A DNA stretch of 41,661 nt from Candidatus Jordarchaeia archaeon (GCA_029856435.1 JAHQXB010000074.1:1-41661), one strand, 5' to 3'; positions 11,984 to 27,085 are shown, counted from the first letter of the stretch. A program made the numbers and translations. The notes: generated by a model not told the origin, from the letters alone.

Positions 11984-12466
11984 TCATGTTTCTTGGGCAC
12001 AGTTTTGGCTCATTTTCTTCCTTATTTTTTCGCATAGAATCTCTGCTATTTCTTCAATTATGGGTTCAGTGCACAATATCTCTACATTTGCGACTTGTTT
12101 TTTCGCTTTTTCAAGTATCTCTGGAATATCTTTTTCCGTGTGTTTACAGTGTGTTAAAAAGAGGGGAACCACAATTATTTTGTTGAATCCTTCGCTGGCC
12201 AGCTGATTTATGGCTTCGGGAATGCTAGGCGAGCAAAACTCTGAAAAACCCACCTTCACCTCTAACCCCGTTTTATCCTTCACTTTCTTCGCGAGCCTTT
12301 CACTTTCCAGCTTATGAGGATCATTTATTTTCCCAATGTTCCTGGGAACTTTTCTCGCCGTATCTGATATTTTTTCCATGATTTTCTCTGCTTGCTCCAT
12401 TTCATAGTCCAATGGTATATCTCCATGAGCAGCTATAACAACTCCAACCTTCTTCATCTTCCTCAC
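11984..12466 (-). CDS. cbiX: Small CbiX/SirB-type (class II) chelatase
   Basis: IAAHG, VGFSEFCSPSI, VVPLFL, HTEKDIP. Single-domain size of 160 aa. Confidence 0.8.
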   Translation of the reverse strand: MRKMKKVGVVIAAHGDIPLDYEMEQAEKIMEKISDTARKVPRNIGKINDPHKLESERLAKKVKDKTGLEVKVGFSEFCSPSIPEAINQLASEGFNKIIVVPLFLTHCKHTEKDIPEILEKAKKQVANVEILCTEPIIEEIAEILCEKIRKKMSQNCAQET

Positions 12467-12519
12467 CTTTTAGTCAACGATTCCTCGAGTATCTTATTTA
12501 TGAAAGACAAATTTTATAA

Positions 12520-13851
12520 TTGAGAAAGATGCCTTCTAGTATTATGGCACAAAAGGCATTGGAAAACTACATGCATAAATTTATTGTGAATATCTGCAAA
12601 GAAATTGGGCCACGAGAGTCTGGTTCCAAGGAAGAGGAACTAGCAGGAAACAGGGTGGAAGAGGAACTAAAAAAGTTCTGTGACAAAACCCACCAAGAAG
12701 AATTCATCAGCAGCCCCACCGCTTTTCTGGGCTTCATCAGGTACAGCTCCATAATGGTAATTTGCGGAATAATCCTCTACTGGCTCTCTCTTCTAGTTGA
12801 TATGGGATGGCTTCAAATTGGCATCAATCCTACCGATTTAGTTTTAATCAGCTTGGGACTGATGCGGGGCAGTTTTCTCGGCCCGACACTCTCATTAATT
12901 GCCAGCATACTTGCAGTTTTTGCGGTTAGCTACTTCATTCTAGAAGTAATGCGCTACAGAGAGCTAGTGGACTTCGTATTTCCCAAGAAGAAGTCCAAAA
13001 ACGTCATTGGAACAATAAACCCCACAGGCAAAGTTAAACACACCATAATTTTTGCCGGCCACCACGATTCAGCCTACGAATTCAACGTATTCTACTACCT
13101 AAAGACAATAGGTAGTTTAACAATTTTCATCGGCTACGTTGGAGTAGTAATCTTTAGCATTGTTAGCGTTTTGAAAACAATCTTCTATCTTCTCCCACTC
13201 AAATTAACCCAAGTCTTTCTCTGGTTCGGAATTTTCTTCCTATTCATCACTCCCATAGCCGCCATCTACGTTTTCTTCCACAGCTATAAACCAGTACCGG
13301 GGGCCTTCGACAACCTATCCGGGGTGGCCGTGGTGCTAGGAATAGGCAAATACCTGTCCGAAAACAAGAACAACCCAGAAGTATATCCCAAAAACACTCG
13401 CATCCACCTAATCTCATTCGCCGGAGAGGAAGCCGGACTAAGGGGATCAAAACGCTACGTCAAAGCCCACTATGAGGAATTAAAGAAAAGCAACACTATT
13501 TTAATAAACATGGATGGCATAGCAACAAAGGACTCCGTCGTCATATTTGAGAAAGAAACACTAATAGGCGCAAAACACAACCCCGAATTATGCAATACCT
13601 TACTAAAAATTGCCCAAGAACAAGGCATAAACGCCCGCTTGGGAGCCCTACCCTTCGGAGCAACAGACGCCGCAGCCTTCAGCCGCAAAAAACTGCCAGC
13701 AACAACAATAGGATCCCACGAACTAAAAGGAAAACTACCCGAATTCTACCACACAAGACTCGACACCCCCGAAGTAGTGGACAAAGAAGCCCTAGGACAA
13801 ATACTACAAATCTGCCTAGGATACATAAAATACATCGACAATTTAACTTAG
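12520..13851 (+). CDS. Membrane-embedded M28-family zinc peptidase
   Basis: All M28 ligands are present: GHHDSA, GAFDNLSG, GEEAGLRGS, INMDG, YHT. Two hydrophobic insertions. Start could also be the ATG at 12529 or 12544. Confidence 0.85.
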   Translation: MRKMPSSIMAQKALENYMHKFIVNICKEIGPRESGSKEEELAGNRVEEELKKFCDKTHQEEFISSPTAFLGFIRYSSIMVICGIILYWLSLLVDMGWLQIGINPTDLVLISLGLMRGSFLGPTLSLIASILAVFAVSYFILEVMRYRELVDFVFPKKKSKNVIGTINPTGKVKHTIIFAGHHDSAYEFNVFYYLKTIGSLTIFIGYVGVVIFSIVSVLKTIFYLLPLKLTQVFLWFGIFFLFITPIAAIYVFFHSYKPVPGAFDNLSGVAVVLGIGKYLSENKNNPEVYPKNTRIHLISFAGEEAGLRGSKRYVKAHYEELKKSNTILINMDGIATKDSVVIFEKETLIGAKHNPELCNTLLKIAQEQGINARLGALPFGATDAAAFSRKKLPATTIGSHELKGKLPEFYHTRLDTPEVVDKEALGQILQICLGYIKYIDNLT

Positions 13852-13913
13852 TACATAACAGCCACCCCCCTTTTTTCATAAAAATGAATTAAATTCCCCG
13901 TAATTAGAGGTTA

Positions 13914-15167
13914 TTGAAAATGGTTAAACCAATAAATAAACCCAAAACGCAACCAGTTTTTCCGCAGCACAAAGGAGCCGAAGAGCTAGTACCCCAAGTC
14001 TACTCCATAACCACATTCGGAAATGTAGGCTTCGTTGTCACAGAAGAGGGAGTAGTAGTAGTGGACACAGCTATCCACCAGTTTGGGGAAATAATTAGAA
14101 ACGATATTCGAAAAGTTACCGATACTCCAATTCACTCAATTATATACACTCATGGACACTATGATCATGCTTTCGGCGTTTGGGCTCTGCTAAAGGATGC
14201 CGAAGAGCGGGGAAACCCCAAACCTAGAATCATTGCCCATGAAAATGTGGTTAAACGCTTCAACCGATACCGGGAACTACAGGGTCAACAGGAATTCATT
14301 AACCGCATCCAGTTCAGCGTCCCCGATGGGACAAGCGCCGTGCCCAAGGAATATTACTACCCAGACCTAACATATCACGACCGTTTGAGCTTTCGGCTCG
14401 GCGGCTTAACCTTTGAACTACGGTTTGGAATGGGGGAAACAGACGATGCCACCTGGATTTGGATTCCAGAGAAAAAAGTCCTATTCTCAGGAGATTTTCT
14501 CCTGTGGTCCTTTCCCAATTTGGGGAACCCCTTCAAGGTTCAACGCTACGAAACCGAATGGGCGGATGCCCTAGAACAAATGGCTTCCCTCCACCCTCAA
14601 ATTCTAGTACCGGGACATGGCCCAGTCATTCGCGGCGAAAAAATTCAAAAAGTTTGCCTCAACACCGCCCGAGCCCTACGCTACCTCCACGAAGAAGTGG
14701 TGAAACGCTTAAACCAGGGTGCCTGGATTGAACAAATACTAGAAGAAGTTCAACTTCCCGAAGATTTGGCCAAAAAGTCCTATCTGGCCCCCATTTATGG
14801 ATGCCCCACATTCGCCATCCACGCCATATACAGGCGCTACGCAGGCTGGTACGACGGCAACCCCTCCCATCTATTCCCATCAAAGACCGCAGACATCGCC
14901 AAAGAGATTGTAAACCTAACTGGACCAGAAGCATTACTTAACCGAGCTAAGGCCCTAAAAGAAGCTGGAGAAATACAATTAGCACTCCACTTAGTAGACT
15001 TCATAATATACAATCCCGAAACCACAGGTTTAAAAGAGGCTCATGAACTAAAAGCAGAATTGCTCCAAGCCAAAGCTGAGCAGACAACAAGTTTCATCGC
15101 CCGTAACATATTTGCGAATGGTGCTCATCGGGAGCGTCATTTTACTCGCGAAAGTAAGTACCCCTAA
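13914..15167 (+). CDS. Metallo-beta-lactamase-fold alkyl sulfatase-like hydrolase with dimerisation domain
   Basis: THGHYDH, GETDD, GDF, PNLGNP, PGHG, RRYAGWYDGNP. Confidence 0.85.
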   Translation: MKMVKPINKPKTQPVFPQHKGAEELVPQVYSITTFGNVGFVVTEEGVVVVDTAIHQFGEIIRNDIRKVTDTPIHSIIYTHGHYDHAFGVWALLKDAEERGNPKPRIIAHENVVKRFNRYRELQGQQEFINRIQFSVPDGTSAVPKEYYYPDLTYHDRLSFRLGGLTFELRFGMGETDDATWIWIPEKKVLFSGDFLLWSFPNLGNPFKVQRYETEWADALEQMASLHPQILVPGHGPVIRGEKIQKVCLNTARALRYLHEEVVKRLNQGAWIEQILEEVQLPEDLAKKSYLAPIYGCPTFAIHAIYRRYAGWYDGNPSHLFPSKTADIAKEIVNLTGPEALLNRAKALKEAGEIQLALHLVDFIIYNPETTGLKEAHELKAELLQAKAEQTTSFIARNIFANGAHRERHFTRESKYP

Positions 15168-15238
15168 GTAATAGAAATAGTAAGTCATATATACTAATAA
15201 AATTAATTTAAATAATCTAAAACATATTATATAAATTA

Positions 15239-16486
15239 ATGTTTAAGGAGGAAGATTTCGTGTCCACCGAAGATGTAGACAAGATGATGAGTGATTATCG
15301 TGAAAAGGTTTTGGCCTCCAGAACACGTTTCCAAAGATTTGTAGATTTCTTTGGTAAAATCCCCATGCCCACCTACTTCATAGTCATGTTTACTGGAGTC
15401 TTTTTAAACGGTTCCAGGCTGAACTCCCTGGATCTACTTCTTAGGTCTCTTGTGGTTCTTAACAGTCCTGACCCTCTAACAGGTTTTCAGCAGAGCATCC
15501 TTATACATCTGTGGTTTATACCTCCCATCCCCGCCGAGTGGAATTCATCCCTCCTAGTTCCAAGTGTGACCAGCGTTTTTGTGGGCTTTACACTATTCAT
15601 AATTTATTTCATTTCTAGGCGTGTAGCATACAAGCAAACGTACTATGTGGACCTAGGTTTCCTAGGGTTCTTTTTGCTGGGTATACTCCTGTTGCTCGCC
15701 TCTCCAAAAATATTTGCAGCACTCTACTACTATTATCCCGCTACTCTGGTATTCCTATTTTTGGCTGCCCCTGCCCTCATATCCATAGTCGCCAGGAAGC
15801 CTTTCACCCTTCAGCACGTTGAGAGAGTTTATCCCCCATCGATTAGGGAGCTTGATATTTACAAAAAAATACACTATCGGGTCGCCACTTTCTTTCTTGT
15901 AGTCTTCATTGTTAATGCTGCAGTTTTCTACTTCAGATTTGTTTTTTCCACCGCTTCACCAGTTTTCACCGTTGTATTCTTCATGGTTTTTTACTTCCTA
16001 ATTCTGGCTTGGGCTTTTATGACTCATTTTCCGGGATGGTACCGCCGAAGAGTACTAAAAACACCCCTAAAAAATCCATCAAATCCCCTCCCCAACAGGG
16101 TAAAAATAGCCGGTGCTCTACTGATAATTTACGGTCAACTAACCTTCATAGTTGGACTTATGCTATCAACCATAACATTCACGGCTTTAGCTTACCTTAT
16201 TGCCATAGCCCTCATAATCTCTGGCTTCGGAGTAATCTTAACTAAAAAGTGGGGCTGGTACCTGACCATAGGCACACTCGCATCACAGATTATCATATTC
16301 TGGTTAGCGTGGGCTTTTACCCCTCACAGTTTAACAGAATGGTTATCCTCAATTGGCACCTTCCTTGCAACCCTCTCATTTTATCCCCCATCAGATGGCC
16401 TCCTAAGCCTCTCCCTAATATTTACCGTAATTTCTTCAGTGTTCCTTTGCTATATGTTCCCAAAAAGAAACTATTACCTCCTTTAA
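15239..16486 (+). CDS. Polytopic membrane protein of unknown function (~10 TM segments)
   Basis: Long uninterrupted ORF with many hydrophobic segments. The segment RKPFTLQH...P...I...FF...NA recalls uncharacterised IspA-like membrane proteins (weak). Confidence 0.7.
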   Translation: MFKEEDFVSTEDVDKMMSDYREKVLASRTRFQRFVDFFGKIPMPTYFIVMFTGVFLNGSRLNSLDLLLRSLVVLNSPDPLTGFQQSILIHLWFIPPIPAEWNSSLLVPSVTSVFVGFTLFIIYFISRRVAYKQTYYVDLGFLGFFLLGILLLLASPKIFAALYYYYPATLVFLFLAAPALISIVARKPFTLQHVERVYPPSIRELDIYKKIHYRVATFFLVVFIVNAAVFYFRFVFSTASPVFTVVFFMVFYFLILAWAFMTHFPGWYRRRVLKTPLKNPSNPLPNRVKIAGALLIIYGQLTFIVGLMLSTITFTALAYLIAIALIISGFGVILTKKWGWYLTIGTLASQIIIFWLAWAFTPHSLTEWLSSIGTFLATLSFYPPSDGLLSLSLIFTVISSVFLCYMFPKRNYYLL

Positions 16487-16617
16487 CTTTTTATTGGAGC
16501 TTTGAACAGAATCGATGCCAATAGGTTAGTGAAGATTTTTAACCTTATTTGTGATTGTTTAAATACGCTCTTTCGGTCTGTTAAATTAGAACTTTGGGTC
16601 TTTTGGAGGTGTTTTAT

Positions 16618-17751
16618 TTGCCTTTAAGGATGCATGAAAACGAGACTATGACTCCTAGGGAGAGAATGGAAACTGTTTTAAATCTACGTGAACCCGACCG
16701 TGTCCCTATTATAGCTTCCTTTCACGCGGCTCAGGCTAGGTTGACTGGGATGACCATAGAGGAATTTTTCTTCAATGTGCCAAAATCCTATGAGGCCACA
16801 AAGAAGGTTTGGGAAATGTTTGGTGGCTTTGATGTGTACACGGGATGCTCCCCCATCCTTGGTTACTATCTTCCCTGGCCTAATTCTCACAGCATGGTTT
16901 ATTTTGACTGGACTCTTCCAAAGGGTAATGTTCCTGAGCAGATGCATGAGAAGGAGCTTATGAAGCGTAGTGACTATGATCTTGTAATTGAGAAGGGTTT
17001 CGCTCCCTTTAAGAGAAGACCGGAATTAGAGAAGGACTTCATGAATTATGTGGCGCAGTTCGCAGCATTGGACACTAACAAATGGCTTGAGGAGATGGAT
17101 GTTCCATCCCTTTTTGTTGGAGCCATAGAGCCCCCAGTAGATATTATATCTTTTCTGAGAAGCTTTAACAAGTATCTTATAGATGTTGTGGAGATTCCCG
17201 ATAAGGTTGTAGAGGCCTGTGAGGCTACAGTGGACGAAATGCTTGCCACCCTAGACGTACAAATCCAGTTTCTGAGCGGTGAAAAAGGTCCAAAAGCAGT
17301 TCTCTACGGATTTTCGCGGGTGGCTTCAAGTTTTATTTCCCGCAAAAAATTTGAACTATTCTGGCCCCACCTCAAAAGAATCGCGGAAGCCATCATAGAT
17401 AAGGGGTGTATTGTACAGTTCCACCTAGATAATGATTACACAGATTTTCTAGAATACTTCACAGAACTTCCGAAGGGTAAAACATGGTTCCACCTAGACC
17501 AAACAGACATATTCAAAGCCAAAGAAATCCTTGGAGATAGAGCGTGCCTAATGGGAAATATTCCTCCCCAGATAACAGGCTTAGGCTCACCTAAGGAAGT
17601 AGAAGCCTACTGTAGAAAACAGATAGAAGGTTGCATGGAAGGCGGAGGCTACATACTTTGCTCTTCATGTGTGCTTCCCGACGATGTTCCCGCCGCAAAT
17701 ATTAAAGCCATGAAGGACGCTGTAATGAAATACGGCTTCTACCGCGCCTAA
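16618..17751 (+). CDS. URO-D/MtaA-fold methyltransferase 3
   Basis: MTPRERM...EPDRVP, FHLDND, LMGNIPP...GSPKEV...C, GGGYILCSSC. SD GGAGGTG (16605-16611) favours the TTG at 16618. Confidence 0.87.
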   Translation: MPLRMHENETMTPRERMETVLNLREPDRVPIIASFHAAQARLTGMTIEEFFFNVPKSYEATKKVWEMFGGFDVYTGCSPILGYYLPWPNSHSMVYFDWTLPKGNVPEQMHEKELMKRSDYDLVIEKGFAPFKRRPELEKDFMNYVAQFAALDTNKWLEEMDVPSLFVGAIEPPVDIISFLRSFNKYLIDVVEIPDKVVEACEATVDEMLATLDVQIQFLSGEKGPKAVLYGFSRVASSFISRKKFELFWPHLKRIAEAIIDKGCIVQFHLDNDYTDFLEYFTELPKGKTWFHLDQTDIFKAKEILGDRACLMGNIPPQITGLGSPKEVEAYCRKQIEGCMEGGGYILCSSCVLPDDVPAANIKAMKDAVMKYGFYRA

Positions 17752-17795
17752 TCCCAAAACTATCTCCAGACAAAGTACTAGTTCTATTTTGGAGT

Positions 17796-18524
17796 GTGTA
17801 TGTGTTGCTTTATCGTGATTCCGTCTCAAAAGCCCAGAAGCTATATTACGATATGATTCTGGAATCTGGTTTTCCAATAAAGGGGCTGAAACCGGAAGAC
17901 TTGGAAGTGGTTGACTTCGGTCTAAGCCAGGGGGAACTGGACTACTTTAAAAGAGTGGGTCTTGGAATATACGTGCTAGTAAACGAGGCCGAATGTGGGA
18001 AAATTTTGTGCTTCCTTCCAAACCAGTACATGCCAGAACACCGCCACCAATCAGTGGTGGTTATGCCCAAAGGCTCCAAAATTATGAAGGGCTACATCGA
18101 TTTAAAGAAACTTGTGAAAGACTTTAAGGGTCTAAAAGAATTTGGGGAAGAGGCCGTCTACATGGTGCCCGAAAAGGAGAACACCCCTATTCCCAAAAAG
18201 GGTATTCTCATCCCCGGCAAACAGGAATACTTCCACACCATAAAGGGCACTGGCTCAATGTTTGTACCCGGAAAACCCACCGACAAACCCACCTATCCCA
18301 TACCTGAAGAGCATTGTCCTCACACTACCGCACTACACGAAGTCTTCCTAGAGCCGGGCGTGGGATTCCATCTGGCCGCCAACACTCCACACAGTGTAGT
18401 TGCGGGACCTGAGGGCCTAATAGTCATTGAGTTCTCCTTGAAAAGCAGAGATCCTCTAGACATATTTACGAATCCCAAAATAGACAGAATCACCCACATA
18501 AAGGAACGCTCAAAAATGACGTGA
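17796..18524 (+). CDS. D-lyxose/D-mannose ketol-isomerase family cupin with a ~50-aa insertion
   Basis: PNQYMPEHRH...GKQEYF...HEVFLEPG...NTPH...AGPEG.IV.EFS..S.D..DIFTNPKI follows the lyxose-isomerase pattern (His-x-His, Glu, His metal ligands). Confidence 0.82.
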   Translation: MYVLLYRDSVSKAQKLYYDMILESGFPIKGLKPEDLEVVDFGLSQGELDYFKRVGLGIYVLVNEAECGKILCFLPNQYMPEHRHQSVVVMPKGSKIMKGYIDLKKLVKDFKGLKEFGEEAVYMVPEKENTPIPKKGILIPGKQEYFHTIKGTGSMFVPGKPTDKPTYPIPEEHCPHTTALHEVFLEPGVGFHLAANTPHSVVAGPEGLIVIEFSLKSRDPLDIFTNPKIDRITHIKERSKMT

Positions 18525-21220
18525 GAGGGAGGATAACTGTGAAAAGAAGGAACGAATCCATTCTTGTTTCTCATACTCACTGGGATAGAGAATGGTACAA
18601 ACCTTTCCAAACTTTTCGAGGATACATGGTGGAAATGATTGACTGCTTAATAGACCTGATGGAAAAAAATCCTGACTATAAACACTTTTTGCTGGATGGT
18701 CAATCCATTCTTCTTGAAGACTACTTTGAGGTGCGACCCGAGAATAAGGAACGTATACGCGCTCTTGTCAGTTCGGGCCGCTTAAGTGTTGGCCCCTTTT
18801 ACGTTCTGCCAGACATGTTTTTGGTCTCCGCTGAATCTATTGTGCGGAACTTGCTTCTGGGCATAATGACTGCCGAAGAGTGTGGAGGGTCTCAAAAAAT
18901 AGGTTATCAGCCGGATTGTTTTGGGCAAATTGCTCAAACTCCTCAAATAATGAAGGGATTTGCCTTTAAGGGATTCGTTTTCTGGAGAGGTTTGGGAGAT
19001 GAGATTGACTTTCTTCCAACAACTTTTCTTTGGGAAGCTCCCAGTGGAGACCGCATACTTACTCACCAGATTGCAATTGGCTACTTTAATGTAGGCGACC
19101 TCCCCCAAGATACAGATGCTGCTATTACACTAATTGAAAAAACAAAAGTTATGCTTCAGGAAAGAAGCAACAGAAACTTCCACCTGTTTCTTAATGGTCA
19201 TGACCATGCTTTTCCCCAAAGAAACGTGCCCCAAATCATAAACGCCTACAATGAGAAACATCCCAATGACCCAATAAGGCATGGAAGTTTGCAAGACTTT
19301 TTCAATCAGCTTGAAGAAAACACCCATAACCTACCCGTGTACAGGGGAGAGTTCAGGGGAGCACGCATGTTTCCTGTTTTACCCGGAGTTCTATCCTCCC
19401 GCATATACTTGAAACAGGCAAATCATAGATGCCAAACAAAATTGGAGAACTATGCGGAGCCATTCTCCGCCTGGGCTTGGACCCTTGGAGAAAACTATGA
19501 TAGGAGTTACCTGTGGCTAGCTTGGAAGTGGCTTCTTGAAAATCACCCCCACGACAGTATTTGCGGATGCTCCATTGACCAAGTTCATAGAGAGATGGAA
19601 ACCCGTTTCGCTTGGAGTGAACAGATAGCTGACCTACTCACACTAAAAGCAATGGAGCGTATAGCGTCAAAAGCAACAGTTTCGGGTGAGGGATTCCCCA
19701 TAGCGGTCTTCAATCCCTCCCCTTGGAAAAGAACTGGAGTGGTGGAATTCCTCTCAGAGCCTTTTCCACCATTCACCTTTAACAGCCAGCAATTCACCTT
19801 CAACCCCTCCCTCGTCAAGAGCCTAGATTTCAAGCCGGACCGCAACTTTTGCATAGTGGATCAGGAGGATGGGAGAACTCTTCCCGTGGAAGTATTTGAA
19901 GAACCAGAGAGTTATGCCTTCCGATTTTTCGAGAATATGACCCGCTACACCCTAAGGTTTCTTGCCACAGATGTTCCCGCCTGCGGATACAAAGTACTGT
20001 ACGTAAAAGAAGGGAAGGCAGAAACTGCAAATTCACCTCTCAAACTCGATGTTGGGAAGAGAACGATTGAGAATGAATATTTAAGAGTTAAGCTTAACCC
20101 GAATGGCACAATGGACGTAACAGAACTATCAAGTGGCGTTACATTCACTGGACTACACATATTCGAGGATGTGGGTGATAATGGTGACGAGTACAATTAC
20201 TCCCAACTCAAGGAAGACGAGATTATTACCAGCGAACATGTTAATGCTGAAATTTCATTTGAAGAACACCCCGCAAGATTGGACGCAATAGTGAAGATGG
20301 AAATGCTTCTCCCAAAAAGTTTAGAGGAGGGGAACCGTAATCGCCGCTCCCGCGAAAGGATACCCCTAAGAATAACTTCAATAATATCTCTCTTTCCCGG
20401 CTCCAGATTTGTTAACTGCAAAACAGAAATCGAAAACGTCGCCAAGGATCACCGTCTAAGAGTACTCTTCCCTACGAGTATAGAGTCTGATGTTGTCTAT
20501 GCTGATGGCCACTTTGGAGTGGTTGAGAGAAGCTTGAAACTCCCGGACGACACAAACTGGATAGAAGTGCAAACTACAGCGAACCACCAAAACCTCTTCG
20601 TAGACATAAATAACGGAAAAAAGGGCCTAGCCATAGCAAATAAGGGACTCCCCGAATACGAAATCTATGGAGAAAACGAGAGAACCATAGCCATAACCCT
20701 TGTACGCTCAGTAGGCTGGCTATCAAGAAACATGGATCATAATAACCGCAGAATCTTCGGAGGCCCAGCAATACCCACACCAGAAGCCCAATGCCAGGGT
20801 CGCCTCACAGTGGAATATGCAGTAATACCCCACCCCGGAGACTGGGAGGAAGCGATGATTCCCAGAATAGCCAGAGAATTCACCTGCGACTTAAGGGCGG
20901 TAGAAGTCAAAAACCCCCTACACAAGCTACCCGCCTCCACAAGCTTTCTAGAAGTTGAACCCCCCTCAATAATTCTCTCCGCGGTTAAAAAAGCCGAAAA
21001 GGAGGAGGTCCTCATCATCCGCATATACAACACTGGAAAAAAACAGCAAAACGCGACACTCACCCTCAGTAAACCAGTGAAGTCAGCTAAAATAATCAAC
21101 CTCGCAGAGAATGAAATAAGGGAGGAGGCTTCAATTTCAATAAAAGAAAACAAAATCAAAGTAGAATGTATCCCAGCAGCAAAAATTGTAACATTAAAAA
21201 TCAACACCGCAGACCAATAA
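18521..21220 (+). CDS. Glycoside hydrolase family 38 (alpha-mannosidase / mannosylglycerate hydrolase-like)
   Basis: SHTHWDREWY, FLLDGQ, PDCFG, GHDH, HPHDSICGCS, VFNP, NKGLPEYE, PTPEAQC. Start overlaps the isomerase stop (GTGA). Confidence 0.93.
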   Translation: MRGRITVKRRNESILVSHTHWDREWYKPFQTFRGYMVEMIDCLIDLMEKNPDYKHFLLDGQSILLEDYFEVRPENKERIRALVSSGRLSVGPFYVLPDMFLVSAESIVRNLLLGIMTAEECGGSQKIGYQPDCFGQIAQTPQIMKGFAFKGFVFWRGLGDEIDFLPTTFLWEAPSGDRILTHQIAIGYFNVGDLPQDTDAAITLIEKTKVMLQERSNRNFHLFLNGHDHAFPQRNVPQIINAYNEKHPNDPIRHGSLQDFFNQLEENTHNLPVYRGEFRGARMFPVLPGVLSSRIYLKQANHRCQTKLENYAEPFSAWAWTLGENYDRSYLWLAWKWLLENHPHDSICGCSIDQVHREMETRFAWSEQIADLLTLKAMERIASKATVSGEGFPIAVFNPSPWKRTGVVEFLSEPFPPFTFNSQQFTFNPSLVKSLDFKPDRNFCIVDQEDGRTLPVEVFEEPESYAFRFFENMTRYTLRFLATDVPACGYKVLYVKEGKAETANSPLKLDVGKRTIENEYLRVKLNPNGTMDVTELSSGVTFTGLHIFEDVGDNGDEYNYSQLKEDEIITSEHVNAEISFEEHPARLDAIVKMEMLLPKSLEEGNRNRRSRERIPLRITSIISLFPGSRFVNCKTEIENVAKDHRLRVLFPTSIESDVVYADGHFGVVERSLKLPDDTNWIEVQTTANHQNLFVDINNGKKGLAIANKGLPEYEIYGENERTIAITLVRSVGWLSRNMDHNNRRIFGGPAIPTPEAQCQGRLTVEYAVIPHPGDWEEAMIPRIAREFTCDLRAVEVKNPLHKLPASTSFLEVEPPSIILSAVKKAEKEEVLIIRIYNTGKKQQNATLTLSKPVKSAKIINLAENEIREEASISIKENKIKVECIPAAKIVTLKINTADQ

Positions 21221-21616
21221 ACTCTTTAAACTTGCACTGAGCACCACTTCAATACATTAATGGCTGATAACTGGAAAACAAAGTTATATCACCTAACCAA
21301 AACTCAATTTTTGAATTATCCCCTTAGGGTTTAATCACAAGATAGGAGCCAAGATGAAAAAAAGTAAAAAGATGATGCTTCTTACTTCGGTGATGTAGAA
21401 TCGTTCGGTTTCGCCTCAAAAAGGGGTGTTTATAGGGCTTCTTTCACGATTTGGAGCCTTATTAGGGAGATGGAGCCGAATAAATCTGCATCACCTTCTT
21501 ACTTCCATGATAATTGTTTTGAATAAGAGGCATGATTTCTGCATTAGGTTGCTTCTTCCGGCTATTAAGGCAGTTTATTCCTTCTCATCCCGTATTGTGA
21601 ACTTTTTATTCATTTT

Positions 21617-22663
21617 TTAGTCAAGTTGTATGGGGTATTTTCCGTATTCTCTGGCTGCTTCCATGAAGGCCCTCAGATTTTCGAGGGGAGTATCTGGTGG
21701 TACTTCGCATCCTGTGGCAAGCATGTACATTCCACCTGGAGCCGCTTGACGTATGCATTCCTTAACAGCTTGTTTCACATCTTGTGGTGTGCCCTCCAAC
21801 ATGACTTTGACTGGATCTACGTTTCCCACAAGAACCACTCTGCCTGCAATCTTCTTCTTAGCTTCTGCAAGGTTGACTGGGGCGTCTATGCTGAGCATTG
21901 CGGGGCCCAACTCGACGAGCTTGTCTATAAGATGGTTTACGTCGCCACATACGTGCAATGCGCAGAATTTTCCCTCCGCCGCCCAAGTTTTGATTACCTT
22001 TTTTAAGGCGGGGGCTGCAAACTTGTCGAACTGTTTAGGTGAAAGAGTACCTGCCACAGGATCTCCGAGGTTTAGTCCCAATTTCACCTCGGCTTGTGCC
22101 CTTCCTTCCTCAATGGCGAAGTCTGTGGTTATATCAAGCATTTCCTGCACGTAGTCTGGGTTCTGTACAAGGTCTTTGTAAAAATTTTCTGGTCCCCTCA
22201 GCGCTGTGAGAAGAGAGACGGGGCCTGCGACCAGTCCGCCTACGCCTGCAACTTTTCTCAGCTCGTTGGTTACTATTTCGCCGGCTTTGAGGATGTTAGG
22301 CAGCCTGCCGTCTTTTCTTGGGTCAGGCATGCGTATATTTTTAACGTCTTTTTTCAAATCTTTTACTGGAAAGTCTACTGCCTCGGGGAGCCTATCCTCA
22401 TGGAATTTTATTTTGCAGCCAAAAGCTTCGGCCTCGACGAGGGTGTCTCCTAGGACAAGTACTACGTCTGGGGTGTATAGTTTGTATGCCTTAACAATGG
22501 CGTGGGCCATTGTTTCGGGGTCGGTTATAAACTCTTTTATGGGTACTCCTGCAAGTCTCGCGTTTCCCGCTCCCACAGAGGGGTAAGCTGGAACCCTATC
22601 TGGTTCCTGTCTGAGGAAAACTCTCTTCATTCTCTCTCTTACGGTTAACTCCTCACCAGACAT
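21617..22663 (-). CDS. MtaA/CmuA-family methylcobamide methyltransferase 4 (canonical Zn site)
   Basis: EPDRVP, EAEAFG, GDPVA, LHVCG, GNVDP, ATGCEVP (His-x-Cys...Cys). Confidence 0.92.
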   Translation of the reverse strand: MSGEELTVRERMKRVFLRQEPDRVPAYPSVGAGNARLAGVPIKEFITDPETMAHAIVKAYKLYTPDVVLVLGDTLVEAEAFGCKIKFHEDRLPEAVDFPVKDLKKDVKNIRMPDPRKDGRLPNILKAGEIVTNELRKVAGVGGLVAGPVSLLTALRGPENFYKDLVQNPDYVQEMLDITTDFAIEEGRAQAEVKLGLNLGDPVAGTLSPKQFDKFAAPALKKVIKTWAAEGKFCALHVCGDVNHLIDKLVELGPAMLSIDAPVNLAEAKKKIAGRVVLVGNVDPVKVMLEGTPQDVKQAVKECIRQAAPGGMYMLATGCEVPPDTPLENLRAFMEAAREYGKYPIQLD

Positions 22664-22693
22664 GATTTAACCTCCAAAATCTCGCGTCTTTTT

Positions 22694-23332
22694 TTATCCT
22701 AAGAGCTCTTTAGCCTTTTGGACTGCTTCCCGTGCGTCTTTTCCGTAGGCGTCGGCGCCGATTTTTTCAGCGAAATCTTGTGAGGTGGCGGCTCCCCCTA
22801 TTAGTATTTTAACACTTTCTCGTAGTCCCTCATTATCTAGAGCTTTTATGGTGTTAATCATCTCCGCCCTCGCTGACGAGATGATACCGGACATGGCTAA
22901 AATGTCTGGGTTATGCTTCTTAACATTCTCTACGAAGGTTTCTGGGGGAACGTTTTCACCAATGTCAATTACCTCAAATCCGGCTGCCTGTAACATTATT
23001 TTAACTATGTTTTTTCCTATGGTGTGTATATCTGTATAAGCGGTGCCAAGTAACACCTTGCCGTGGCCGCTCGTTCTTCTCTCCTTTAGGTGTGGCTCCA
23101 GTATCTCCAAAGCTGCAGACATGGTTTCAGCTGACATTAGGACATCAGAAATAAAGTATTCCTTGTTACCAAACTTTTCCCCGACAACTTCTATGCCCTT
23201 CATTAATCCCTTAGTTAGGGCATCATATGCATCTATTCCTTGCTCTAAAGCCTCTTTTGCGGCTTCCTTCACGAGATCCACGTTAGCCTCTATTACTGCG
23301 GTTGAAAGCTTTTCAAAAATTCTCTCAGCCAT
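22694..23332 (-). CDS. Corrinoid methyl-carrier protein 3
   Basis: TDIHTIGKN, SGII, IGGA. It sits 30 bp upstream of methyltransferase 4. Confidence 0.93.
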   Translation of the reverse strand: MAERIFEKLSTAVIEANVDLVKEAAKEALEQGIDAYDALTKGLMKGIEVVGEKFGNKEYFISDVLMSAETMSAALEILEPHLKERRTSGHGKVLLGTAYTDIHTIGKNIVKIMLQAAGFEVIDIGENVPPETFVENVKKHNPDILAMSGIISSARAEMINTIKALDNEGLRESVKILIGGAATSQDFAEKIGADAYGKDAREAVQKAKELLG

Positions 23333-23458
23333 TTGCAGTCCACCTTCTGACGCGAGTATTATCCGTTAATTGTACTTTTATCTCTACTACTCAACATTAT
23401 AAACTTTTGTCAAAAAAATGGTATGAGTCGTAAAACCGAAATAATTAGTTTTTAAGCT

Positions 23459-24889
23459 TTAAAGGAGCCCTTCCATCTTGTACCACTCCTCAGCTGCTTT
23501 GGACATAACTTCCCTGTGGTCTACTAGTTCTCCGCCTGCGTCTTGGAGAATTCTTTGAAACATCATGTCTGCTATGTCCCGGTTTTCCTCCACAATGTTT
23601 TGGGTCTGGTTTGGATCCTTTCTTAAATCGTAAAGGTATTCCCTGCTCCTAGAATAATTCGCTATATACACGAATTCTCTATCTTTTGTCCAGACATAAC
23701 CGTTGAAACCAGAGGTTGCGTAGCTCCGAGCCTCCCGCTCCCCCTCTATTAGAGACCAGAGCTCTTCTCCATCTAATGGTGTGGGGGGCTCTATTCCAAG
23801 GAAGGTTAAAATGGTGGGTACTATGTCGTGATTGTATACGAAACCTGAAACACGTTTACCACTCTTAAATCCTTGGGGGTGGCGAATGAAAAGCGGTATG
23901 TCCACTAACTCGGGATAGAGGCCTCTTGGAATCTTACCTATTAAGTTATGCTCACCCAACTGATGTCCATGATCAGATGTCAGTACCACCAGTGATTTAT
24001 CTAGCAGTTCCAGCTCCCTCATTTTTTCTAAAAATTTTCCAAGCCATACATCCACCATTGTGATTTCGCCCCCGTAGAGTGCCTTCATGTATTTTAACTC
24101 TTCGGGTGTGAGATAATCAATACTCGTTGAGTAGTTGGGTGTTATGACTTCTCTGCCAGTGTAGGGTGGATGGTAGAGGTCTCGGTATTTTTGGGGTGGA
24201 TCCCAGGGTTCATGGGGGTCAAATGAATCAATAAAAAGGAAAAATTTCTCAACATCTTTGTTTTCTTCTATCCACTTGGCTGCGGCGCTAAATACTTGGG
24301 GCGCGAAGTAGTCCTCCTCTTTTCGTCGTTCTGCAATGTTTTTGAGGTACTGTGGGAGTATTGTCATTATGTGGTCACATTTTCCGCTCTGTGGTATGTA
24401 GCGTTCTAACTGTTTGGAGTCAATTTTGGGTGCGGTTTTGTAAGGGTCTGCTTCTTGGCCTCTTATCAACTGCCACTGATGGTATCCTCGATGAAAATTC
24501 ATGCTCGGCTTGAAGTAGTGGTAAGTGTCCGTTATAAAGGCTGTGATGTAACCGTTTCTGCGTAGAATCTCCGCAATTGTGTTTTGAGAGTCGGGAATAG
24601 GTTGCCATCCATAAGCTTGAACCATATCTCCCTTGCAGGGATGGTATTCCTTGAAGGGGAAGGTGCGGATTCCCGTATGTATAGACCTTCTGAAGGGAAT
24701 TGTTGGAAGAGATTCGGGGTGCGCGTCTTCAAATATGATGCTTTCTCCGGCTAAGGCGTCTAGGTTAGGGGTTTTAATCCAACTGTTTCCATATATTCCT
24801 AGGTGATCCTTTCTCAGTGTATCTAGGAGGATTACTACGACATTCAAGCCCTTCACACCAACTTGGGGAGAATAATTTGTTCTATCCAA
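23459..24889 (-). CDS. Sulfatase-family (alkaline phosphatase superfamily) hydrolase with Thr at the formylglycine position
   Basis: LLDTLRKD, TPNLD, PTIPFR (T-x-P-x-R), DPHEPW, SDHG, DIVPTIL, YLYDLRKDP.Q..N. Confidence 0.88.
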   Translation of the reverse strand: MDRTNYSPQVGVKGLNVVVILLDTLRKDHLGIYGNSWIKTPNLDALAGESIIFEDAHPESLPTIPFRRSIHTGIRTFPFKEYHPCKGDMVQAYGWQPIPDSQNTIAEILRRNGYITAFITDTYHYFKPSMNFHRGYHQWQLIRGQEADPYKTAPKIDSKQLERYIPQSGKCDHIMTILPQYLKNIAERRKEEDYFAPQVFSAAAKWIEENKDVEKFFLFIDSFDPHEPWDPPQKYRDLYHPPYTGREVITPNYSTSIDYLTPEELKYMKALYGGEITMVDVWLGKFLEKMRELELLDKSLVVLTSDHGHQLGEHNLIGKIPRGLYPELVDIPLFIRHPQGFKSGKRVSGFVYNHDIVPTILTFLGIEPPTPLDGEELWSLIEGEREARSYATSGFNGYVWTKDREFVYIANYSRSREYLYDLRKDPNQTQNIVEENRDIADMMFQRILQDAGGELVDHREVMSKAAEEWYKMEGLL

Positions 24890-25000
24890 ATTCCGATGAT
24901 TAAACTAAGCCACTAATTATGGGAGCAATACTTTAATCTAATCTGTTTAAAAATATATTTTCATTAAAAACTAATCTTTTGACACTAAAAGGTGAATATT

Positions 25001-25630
25001 ATGGCTGATCTGCTTGTTGAAGCTATGGCTAATCTTGATAGGAACGCCGTACTGGATAATGTGGAAAAGGAGATTAAGAGGGGTACAGACCCCCTAAAAA
25101 TAATAGAAAGCCTCTCTCAAGGACTAAAAATTGTGGGTGATCTTTACGATAAAAAAGAATATTTTCTAGCGGAGCTGATAACCGCTGGAGACGTTTTTCA
25201 AAACGCTTTTCAAAAAATAAAACCAGCATTGGAGAAAAAGGGCCTTAGAACCCAGGTCAGAGGAAAAATAGTCATTGGAACGGTGCGCGGAGACCTACAC
25301 GACATTGGAAAAAACATTGTCACTACCATGCTTGTTTCCTCTGGCTTCTACGTGGAAGACTTGGGAGTCGACGTACCAGCAGAAAAGTTCATAGAAGCAA
25401 TAAAGAAAACAGACGCAAACATTCTAGCTATGTCAGCCCTCCTCACAGTAGCACTAGAGGCCGCAAAAGAAACAATAAAACTGCTGGAAAAAGAAAACCT
25501 CAGAAACAGAGTAAAAGTGATCTGCGGGGGCGCAGCCTTCGACGAAAACACCGCCAAAAGAATCGGAGCCGACGCTTACGGGAAAGACCCTCTAGATGCA
25601 GTAAAAATCTGCCAAAAACTCCTCCGGTAA
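25001..25630 (+). CDS. Corrinoid methyl-carrier protein 4
   Basis: GDLHDIGKN, SALL, CGGA. SD AGGTGA (24990-24995) favours the ATG at 25001. Confidence 0.93.
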   Translation: MADLLVEAMANLDRNAVLDNVEKEIKRGTDPLKIIESLSQGLKIVGDLYDKKEYFLAELITAGDVFQNAFQKIKPALEKKGLRTQVRGKIVIGTVRGDLHDIGKNIVTTMLVSSGFYVEDLGVDVPAEKFIEAIKKTDANILAMSALLTVALEAAKETIKLLEKENLRNRVKVICGGAAFDENTAKRIGADAYGKDPLDAVKICQKLLR

Positions 25631-25807
25631 ATAACCTTATCTCTCCACCCCTATTTCTCTTAATATATCTTTTTAAGGCGTTTTTCAGTAATAAATGTAA
25701 ATCTACTGATACTATCATAACTGGTTTTCTGCAAAAATTCATTCATTACCATAACATATTTCAAAAAGAGGGGAAGTAATAAAGAATTAGCTGTTTCTCG
25801 ATTAGGC

Positions 25808-26977
25808 CTAAAATCCTTTCATAATAGGTTCATACTCTTTGAAGAGGTATCGGGATATAACGTAACGCTGAATCTGAGATGTGCCCTCATAGATTTGGAA
25901 AAGCTTTGCGTCCCTAAACAGTTTAGCAATACGATAATTCTCCAGATAGCCTCGACCACCATAGACCTGTAGCGCGTCAATGGCAATCTTCATGGCATCT
26001 TCAGCGCCGACCAGCTTGGCTACGCTAGCTGCCGTGTTAGCGTCTCGGTCTCCCCTATCTACAAGCCAAGCAGCCTTCCAAGTCAGTAGACGCATAGCTT
26101 CGATACGAGCATACATATCCGCCACCATTTGCTGAATTGCCTGAAAACTTGAGATTTTATGCTCAAAGGCTTCTCTCTGCTTAGCGTAGTTAATAGCGTG
26201 CTCCATGGCGGAACGTGCCAAGCCTGTTGCAAAGGCACCAATGGCTGGACGGGTGCGCATAAATGTGCCCATGGCCAGCAGGAAGCCAATGCCCTCCTCG
26301 CCCAACCGGTTTTCAGCCGGAACGCGGACATTTCGAAGAATCACCGCCCCGGTGTCAGAAGCCCGATGTCCCAACTTATCGAGGGGTTTACCAGTAGACA
26401 ACCCTTCACTCTCGCGGGGAACAACAAATGCGCTTAAACCCTCGTGGCGCTTTGTACCCTTAAGCCGGGCAAAAATCACATAATAACTGGCGAAATTACC
26501 GTTAGTAACCCAGAACTTGTTTCCATTCAAAATGTACTCGTCGCCTTGGCGTTCATATGTGGCTTTAATTCCTGCCACATCGCTTCCCATTCCTGGTTCC
26601 GAAGTTGCGAAAGATATGAATTTCAGTTCCTTCGTGAGTGACGTTAAAAACTTTCGCTTCTGTTCTTCTGTTCCGGCAAGAATTATGGGTTCTGCTCCCA
26701 AATCGTTGGCATACATTGAGGTTGCTATTCCCGGGTCCGCTGCTGCAATCTCTTCAACCACAAGCACCGACTCAAAGGATCCGTAGCCCTGTCCACCATA
26801 CTGTTTGGGTATTCCCAAATTCATTAGTCCGGCTTTAAAGGCCTTTTCATAAATGGGTAGTGGAAATTCCCCACTTTTATCATATTTTGATGATACTGGA
26901 ATTATTTCTTCTAATGCGAATTTGCGTGCTTTTTCACGCAGAGCGATTTGCTCCTTTGAGAGTTCAAAATCTACCAT
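25808..26977 (-). CDS. Acyl-CoA dehydrogenase (short/medium-chain type)
   Basis: FATSEPGMGSD, LNGNKFWVT, KLGHRAS, ALQVYGGRGY, IYEGTSQIQ (canonical catalytic Glu). Confidence 0.95.
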   Translation of the reverse strand: MVDFELSKEQIALREKARKFALEEIIPVSSKYDKSGEFPLPIYEKAFKAGLMNLGIPKQYGGQGYGSFESVLVVEEIAAADPGIATSMYANDLGAEPIILAGTEEQKRKFLTSLTKELKFISFATSEPGMGSDVAGIKATYERQGDEYILNGNKFWVTNGNFASYYVIFARLKGTKRHEGLSAFVVPRESEGLSTGKPLDKLGHRASDTGAVILRNVRVPAENRLGEEGIGFLLAMGTFMRTRPAIGAFATGLARSAMEHAINYAKQREAFEHKISSFQAIQQMVADMYARIEAMRLLTWKAAWLVDRGDRDANTAASVAKLVGAEDAMKIAIDALQVYGGRGYLENYRIAKLFRDAKLFQIYEGTSQIQRYVISRYLFKEYEPIMKGF

Positions 26978-27085
26978 AACTTCCCAGCCTCCAAAAATTC
27001 ATTCTCAAGTTTAGCCCCTCAATTCCAGCAGTAGATGTTCCCAAATAAACTTGTGTTGGAATCTGAGGGTTTATGTCTAAAAGAT

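Follow-up and report, generated by a model that had tools for sequence, protein, structure and literature searches.

A URO-D-superfamily methyltransferase with a likely corrinoid partner beside an isomerase and a GH38 mannosidase in one genus of Asgard archaea

The stretch of DNA analysed here (the window; 41,661 nucleotides, GCA_029856435.1 JAHQXB010000074.1:1-41661) is a contig from a 3.5-Mb Asgard metagenome-assembled genome of Candidatus Jordarchaeia archaeon, 98% complete, whose nearest database proteins carry the labels Candidatus Jordarchaeum, Freyarchaeota or Sigynarchaeota. It harbors on its plus strand a trio of genes encoding an MT1-type corrinoid-dependent methyltransferase of the URO-D superfamily (gene 1, hereafter MT1; 16618-17751, 377 aa), a long-form cupin sugar isomerase of the D-lyxose/D-mannose isomerase family (gene 2; 17805-18524, 239 aa) and a cytoplasmic alpha-mannosidase of glycoside hydrolase family GH38, of the MngB/SpGH38 type (gene 3; 18539-21220, 893 aa). 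Between 12.5 and 21.2 kb the gene order on the plus strand is M28 peptidase, alkyl-sulfatase-like gene of the metallo-beta-lactamase fold, membrane protein, MT1, cupin isomerase and GH38; 3' of GH38 follow, on the minus strand, an MtaA-like methyltransferase with its corrinoid protein and a sulfatase-fold gene, and then, again on the plus strand, a lone corrinoid protein (24992-25630) that is the probable methyl carrier of MT1. In total, the window contains four genes of the URO-D fold and four for corrinoid proteins.

The three co-oriented open reading frames (ORFs) of the first-pass annotation (16594/16618-17751, 17796/17805-18524 and 18521/18539-21220) were recovered, as were the families it gave them: URO-D by Pfam, a D-lyxose isomerase homologue by PDB matches and GH38 by four Pfam domains. 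The spacing it reported, a 44-bp gap and a 4-bp GTGA overlap, had to be revised. The overlap arose because the longest ORF had been chosen, while the likely starts (TTG 16618, TTG 17805 and GTG 18539), selected on ortholog lengths (377, 237-239 and 893 aa) and Shine-Dalgarno-like GGAG(G) motifs, leave 53 nt and 14 nt between the genes. A TATA-like sequence, GTTTAAATACG, lies upstream of gene 1 and no such box occurs in the 53-nt or the 14-nt spacer, so that transcription of MT1, cupin and GH38 as a single message appears plausible. No signal peptide was found on the soluble proteins of the locus, an Rfam scan of 12000-27000 returned no riboswitch or other RNA family, and the Asgard papers PMC9723677 and PMC11291895 contain no discussion of the trio genes.

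Judged by its sequence, MT1 is predicted to be a member of an uncharacterised family, sister to CdmB and the O-demethylase MT1 enzymes. It matches Pfam URO-D (PF01208) with 83 bits and scores 46-60 bits against NCBIfam models of the MtaA/MtbA type, whose cut-offs are 244-400. The AlphaFold2 (AF2) model reached a pLDDT of 94.1 and its best Foldseek matches were MtaA (4ay8, E=7e-14) and UroD; in sequence searches against solved proteins, CdmB was retrieved with 99 bits (E=2.5e-27) and MtaA with 22 bits (E=6.6e-4), and no UroD match was obtained in the PDB at E<=0.01. CdmB is the chloromethane:corrinoid methyltransferase of Acetobacterium dehalogenans (PDB 9rui; Nat Commun 2026, PMC13222342). It sits in the O-demethylase clade with MtoB, MtvB, OdmB and VdmB, is zinc-free and has an aromatic cavity, and homologues have been reported in Sigynarchaeales, the same archaeal order as the window (PMC13222342). 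The likeness lies in the plan of the system, a URO-D TIM-barrel MT1 whose partners would be a small corrinoid protein (a separate polypeptide), an MT2 and a RACo-type activase. The alignment to CdmB is nonetheless limited to the C-terminal 222 residues, and the N-terminal half, the part that builds the substrate channels of CdmB, shows no alignment and no relationship in sequence; moreover, the window family keeps a His-x-Asp...Cys site, while CdmB has neither the ligands nor the zinc. The full-length CdmB homologue of this genome is a separate gene on contig C83 (L002:1498-2760; 420 aa, 299 bits to PDB 9rui), adjoining a corrinoid protein and an MtrH-like fragment with an in-frame TAG, and this gene set is probably the Sigynarchaeales Cdm system of PMC13222342.

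The His-x-Asp...Cys site described in the first-pass annotation proved to be real, H269 and D271 showing no variation among 26 sequences that reach down to 34% identity. The counterparts of both residues in the alignment with MtaA are its His-x-Cys zinc ligands; C310 is likewise invariant, and a cysteine of a CSSC motif, aligning with the third MtaA ligand, is kept in orthologs and deleted in one subclade. With respect to MtaA/MtbA (PDB 4ay7), the fold is common to both and His269/Asp271 occupy the His-x-Cys ligand positions, but the sequence match is very weak and an Asp stands in place of the first Cys. The position in the operon also differs: in a 34% identical relative on a bacterial-type contig (L088:5124-11578), the run comprises CobW, a corrinoid protein, MT1, a pterin-binding MT2, DUF1638 and a RACo activase, a layout that fixes the gene 1 family in the MT1 rather than the MT2 position. 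CobW in that operon may point to a supply of metal for the His-x-Asp site. The same operon also holds an Asp-Al_Ex-type transporter.

The dependence of this URO-D enzyme on a corrinoid protein, presumed at first reading, agrees with relatives that adjoin a corrinoid-protein gene in 17 loci elsewhere. Conservation was surveyed in 400 Asgard genomes, with MT1 orthologs defined at 65% identity or more, and such orthologs are present in five Asgard families. A corrinoid-protein gene lies about 32 nt 3' of the ortholog in six genomes of family f20 and one of family f17 (7 loci), and within a clade of 36-40% identity an adjacent corrinoid-protein gene was found in 10/10 sampled loci. In the window the corrinoid protein is supplied from elsewhere, as had been suggested, and it can now be assigned to 24992-25630, which lies 7.2 kb beyond the stop codon of MT1. 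This protein (B12-binding_2 plus B12-binding domains, with D101, H103 and G106 of the DxHxxG motif conserved) is 60-64% identical to the partners encoded directly 3' of MT1 orthologs in two other Asgard families, while the three remaining ones encoded in the window show 36-44% identity to it and 37-45% to the ortholog partners. A model of the complex of MT1 with the 24992 protein reached an ipSAE of 0.86, against 0.00 for the best of three controls, contacts agreed in at least 93% across runs and the partner had a pLDDT of at least 85. In calibration, 58 of 80 solved complexes and 2 of 110 mismatched pairs attained the 0.86 mark, counts that are only rough here because our own alignments were used for the complex model. 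The model supports binding of MT1 to the 24992 protein and speaks to binding rather than specificity, since close paralogues could pass too. The protein encoded at 24992-25630 is therefore the likely partner of MT1. Further components are encoded on other contigs of the same genome, with three RACo_C_ter activases and four to five MtrH homologues; in the genome as a whole, small corrinoid proteins number about 15 and URO-D paralogues 10 or more.

The family of gene 2 was settled by the PDB sequence search, as neither Pfam nor NCBIfam gave a match above threshold. The D-lyxose isomerase model PF07385 reached 14.6 bits (cut-off 20.8) over the C-terminal part only, the match being split where about 55 inserted aa separate the HxH motif from GKQE. 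Searched with phmmer against the PDB, gene 2 matched 7nzo (Thermofilum, E=1.4e-25) and 2y0o (B. subtilis, E=3e-20), and its AF2 model, of moderate quality (pLDDT 78), had 7nzq as best Foldseek hit (E=1.6e-13, TM 0.87 on the target). Nine residues are invariant in 11 gene 2 sequences (K69, H82, H84, K142, E144, H199, E212, D219 and R231) and align in order with K62, H75, H77, K86, E88, H143, E156, D163 and R175 of TsLI. On these grounds the product is assigned, as a prediction, to the long form of the D-lyxose/D-mannose isomerase family. In comparison with TsLI (7nzo/7nzp/7nzq) and YdaE (2y0o), it shares the cupin fold at about 30% identity and retains the Mn ligands (H, H, E, H), the sugar-binding K, K, E and D and the equivalent of R175; it differs by the insertion of about 55 residues after HxH, by its Pfam score below threshold and by belonging to a rare subfamily. 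R175 of TsLI is held to restrict that enzyme near-exclusively to lyxose, with mannose activity below 2%, and since gene 2 keeps the equivalent residue (R231), activity on mannose cannot be assumed.

The long-form subfamily is rare, with 16 matches in 5.8 billion proteins, and in a scan of genome contigs based on the cupin alignment, only Jordarchaeia/Freyarchaeia records yielded the long form. It occurs in 6 of the 400 Asgard genomes, all of one genus (g1), and in none of the other 394. Within a close-relative species lineage the same frameshift near codon 54 of the cupin was present in three assemblies (L015:2700-3409, L094:4078-4787 and L069:4096-4805), in which MT1 (97% identical) and GH38 (91%) are intact; truncated products of 137-185 aa are also found in the protein database. 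More distant homologues were seen in other surroundings. A 51% identical cupin lies on high-GC (61%), bacterial-type wetland contigs (L062:3294-12120 and L063) among two URO-D-fold and two dihydrodipicolinate synthase-family genes, an FGGY kinase, a DegT aminotransferase, IclR regulators and a sugar ABC transporter, with no corrinoid-protein gene on the stretch around it. This co-occurrence was considered as independent support for a cupin-URO-D link and judged weak: those URO-D proteins are 26% identical to MT1 over 113 aa, and distant long-form cupins also occur in nucleotide-sugar/GT9 clusters devoid of URO-D. Long-form cupins of 35-41% identity on low-GC contigs (L098:134-6112 and L101:1802-8431) are clustered with a PfkB kinase, an ARMT1-phosphatase, a cytidylyltransferase and a GT9 glycosyltransferase, which looks like nucleotide-sugar (heptose-like) biosynthesis with the cupin in the isomerase role. 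A further contig (L103:4515-12071) carries a 2518-aa open frame with FGGY-kinase-like and cupin isomerase-like segments.

Gene 3 carries the four Pfam domains of the family (PF01074, 144 bits; PF09261, 48.5; PF07748, 55.9; PF17677, 45.2), and its PDB matches were the enzymes of E. faecalis (3lvt, E=2.4e-130) and S. pyogenes (2wyh, E=5e-123). It shares with MngB of E. coli, SpGH38 (2wyh) and the E. faecalis GH38 (3lvt) the same four-domain architecture and length and the lack of a signal peptide, and it is strongly similar to these cytoplasmic enzymes over its full length. Against the NCBIfam equivalog for mannosylglycerate hydrolase (MngB), however, it scored 626.8 bits with a cut-off of 1138, and the protein is thus best described as a predicted cytoplasmic GH38 alpha-mannosidase and not an assured MngB. 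Other Asgard archaea commonly carry GH38 genes to which it is only about 40% identical.

Synteny of MT1, isomerase and GH38 across lineages, whose absence the first-pass annotation had named as grounds for refuting its pathway, was not observed beyond the level of the genus: the trio is limited to genus g1 (6/6 genomes) and closely related metagenome contigs. Its recurrence within the genus reflects shared ancestry, because the whole neighborhood is syntenic. In four other families MT1 orthologs occur without GH38 or cupin alongside, and orthologous MT1-corrinoid pairs in other families are likewise accompanied by neither sugar gene. GH38 itself is present in 209 of the 400 genomes, and outside the genus it and the MT1 ortholog are on separate contigs. 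In the sister family f2 (genomes 73-95% complete) the MT1 ortholog was found in 5/5 genomes and GH38 in 0/5 at E<=1e-80. A general linkage of GH38 with URO-D genes in Asgard archaea was also considered and rejected, a URO-D gene lying within 7 kb at 1 of 20 GH38 loci from seven other families; the long cupin was found at 0 of these 20. The surroundings of the MT1 orthologs are varied, with thiolase and DUF169 in f2, an HAD hydrolase, two thiamine pyrophosphate enzymes and saccharopine dehydrogenase in f15, and short-chain dehydrogenase/reductase (SDR) and leucine-rich repeat proteins in f17. In the Lokiarchaeial genus g53 (f20) the ortholog belongs to a compact GH3-MT1-corrinoid protein-SDR run (L057:5904-10725; also L011, L050, L052 and L053), which is flanked by genes for an iron-containing alcohol dehydrogenase (Fe-ADH), an aldehyde dehydrogenase and an M28 peptidase. 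Two of the five families thus have a glycosidase no further than two genes from the MT1 ortholog, GH38 in the window genus and GH3 in g53. Where other lineages have both MT1 and the corrinoid partner the two are adjacent, while here the sugar pair and the sulfatase-fold gene intervene.

The reading that we consider probable, if well short of assured, is that two modules of known kinds have been juxtaposed in one Asgard genus (Jordarchaeia/Freyarchaeia-like) and are probably co-transcribed, without a substrate that the two would share. In the first module MT1 would bind a methyl donor, whose leaving group would be activated by the probably metal-bearing His269/Asp271 (and Cys) site; the methyl group would pass to Co(I) of the 24992-25630 corrinoid protein, an MT2 of MtrH type or MtaA-like would hand it onward, and RamA-type activases encoded elsewhere in the genome would repair oxidised cobalt. 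In the second module GH38 would release mannose from imported alpha-mannosides or from mannosylglycerate, and the Mn-type cupin isomerase would turn an aldose (mannose or lyxose) into the ketose. Several observations weigh against this two-module reading. The trio is packed at 53-nt and 14-nt gaps with no visible promoter between its members, its order is kept throughout the genus with orthologs 75-97% identical to the window genes, and the cupin-GH38 pair falls exactly between MT1 and its corrinoid protein. Glycosidases recur near MT1: GH3 is directly 5' of the ortholog in g53 (gap 67 nt) and about 7 kb from it in a Helarchaeial relative of a third family, which is more than we would expect by chance, on a rough post-hoc estimate of about 2% that was not computed by a tool. 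The 51% cupin homologue, too, is found among URO-D-fold genes and a sugar kinase.

These same points, namely the tight co-oriented packing, the glycosidases beside MT1 orthologs and the clustering of the 51% cupin homologue with URO-D-fold genes, would fit the single pathway proposed in the first-pass annotation, in which GH38 frees an O-methyl-mannose, MT1 demethylates it onto the corrinoid protein and the cupin isomerises the mannose to fructose. Zinc in MtaB acts as a Lewis acid on methanol, and the His-x-Asp...Cys site could act in the same manner on an alkyl ether. We know of no alkyl (sugar) methyl ether substrate for any corrinoid MT1, which counts against the pathway, as do the confinement of the trio to one genus, the MT1 orthologs of four other families that lack GH38 or cupin alongside (with no GH38 found in f2 at the threshold given above), the single URO-D gene near 20 GH38 loci elsewhere, the lyxose-restricting Arg kept by the isomerase, the lineage in which the cupin is frameshifted and its neighbors are intact, and the 34% MT1 relative that stands beside an Asp-Al_Ex-type transporter with no sugar genes. 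The only positive evidence for the chain being the adjacency of the genes, it appears unlikely. A wider form of the idea would make the MT1 family and its corrinoid protein a cobamide-dependent O-demethylase for methylated sugars or glycosides, recruited beside different glycosidases in each Asgard lineage (GH38 plus isomerase, or GH3); we regard this too as improbable. If true, it would be the first oxygen-independent route removing sugar methyl ethers. The earlier statement that no cobamide-dependent sugar O-demethylase had been characterised held for the literature searched, where none was found; nor was a competing anaerobic methyl-sugar route, the sole sugar O-demethylation system there being the P450 6-O-methyl-D-galactose demethylase of marine bacteria (PMC6292453). 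That enzyme would be the aerobic counterpart of the proposed reaction, but it is oxygen-dependent and unrelated in fold and mechanism.

Other donors were weighed against the favored two-module reading. MT1 might demethylate methoxylated aromatic (or other methylated) aglycones freed from glycosides by the neighboring glycosidases: it falls within the CdmB/O-demethylase superclade (PMC13222342), and the GH3-MT1-corrinoid protein-SDR run of g53, beside Fe-ADH and aldehyde dehydrogenase, could fit the breakdown of aryl beta-glucosides, e.g., coniferin-type compounds. GH38 does not fit such a role, since natural aryl alpha-mannosides are rare; moreover, MT1 and CdmB cannot be aligned over the N-terminal half, the site of the substrate channel in the latter, and no aromatic-catabolism genes lie near MT1 in the window, so that this explanation seems doubtful. 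That MT1 is a haloalkane (chloromethane) dehalogenating methyltransferase, as proposed for the Sigynarchaeales homologues, might be supposed from CdmB being the closest solved protein and from the report of its homologues in this archaeal order (PMC13222342). The true CdmB homologue is nevertheless the gene on contig C83, with 299 bits over its full length as compared to 99 bits in the C-terminal half for MT1, and CdmB is metal-free with an aromatic cavity where the MT1 family keeps His-x-Asp...Cys; a haloalkane donor is consequently very unlikely. Least of all would we expect the URO-D-fold protein to lack methyltransferase function and to work instead as a decarboxylase that needs no cofactor, or as some other enzyme with a sugar-derived acid as substrate. 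Its fold does resemble that of uroporphyrinogen decarboxylase and the bacterial-type contigs hold URO-D-fold genes by the cupin homologue with no corrinoid-protein gene, but those genes are remote from MT1 (26% over 113 aa), while the MT1 family adjoins a corrinoid protein in the 17 loci, sits in a complete MT1/MT2/activase operon and forms with its partner a complex model that passes the controls.

The Asgard genome encodes at least 10 URO-D paralogues and about 15 small corrinoid proteins, and the assignment of MT1 to a specific corrinoid protein, distinct from the CdmB homologue and retaining a metal-type site, makes its biochemistry directly testable. Should the donor be a methylated sugar, a gap in the anaerobic removal of sugar methyl ethers would be filled. 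On present evidence the sugar genes are lineage-specific neighbors, and the locus therefore represents a modest lead and not a new system.

The remaining genes around the trio differ in how stably they are kept. The gene directly upstream (15239-16486, plus strand) encodes a multi-pass membrane protein of 415 aa with about 8-9 transmembrane segments by hydropathy scan; it belongs to no known family, with no Pfam or NCBIfam match and no usable match in the ESM Atlas. It is always found 5' of MT1 in the genus, relatives carry 2-3 tandem paralogues (G117, L061, L064; L043:3651-7860), and it is possibly a transporter. On the minus strand, the MtaA-like methyltransferase (21617-22663; Pfam URO-D 250 bits, NCBIfam MtaA/CmuA 189 bits) and its corrinoid protein (22694-23332) form a pair spanning 21617-23332 that is an insertion/deletion polymorphism in the genus, with GH38 on one side and the sulfatase-fold gene on the other: L061, L092 and L094 carry it, G117, L009 and L064 lack it, and L091 retains a 58-aa remnant. 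The sulfatase-fold gene (23459-24889, minus strand; Pfam Sulfatase 135 bits), convergent with GH38 and divergent from the corrinoid protein at 24992, keeps its position throughout the genus (G117, L009, L061, L064 and L091). In two Lokiarchaeial genomes (L113:9405-10946 and L116:9431-10936) a weakly sulfatase-like ORF of about 500 aa adjoins GH38, an arrangement that echoes the GH38/sulfatase-fold neighborhood of the window.

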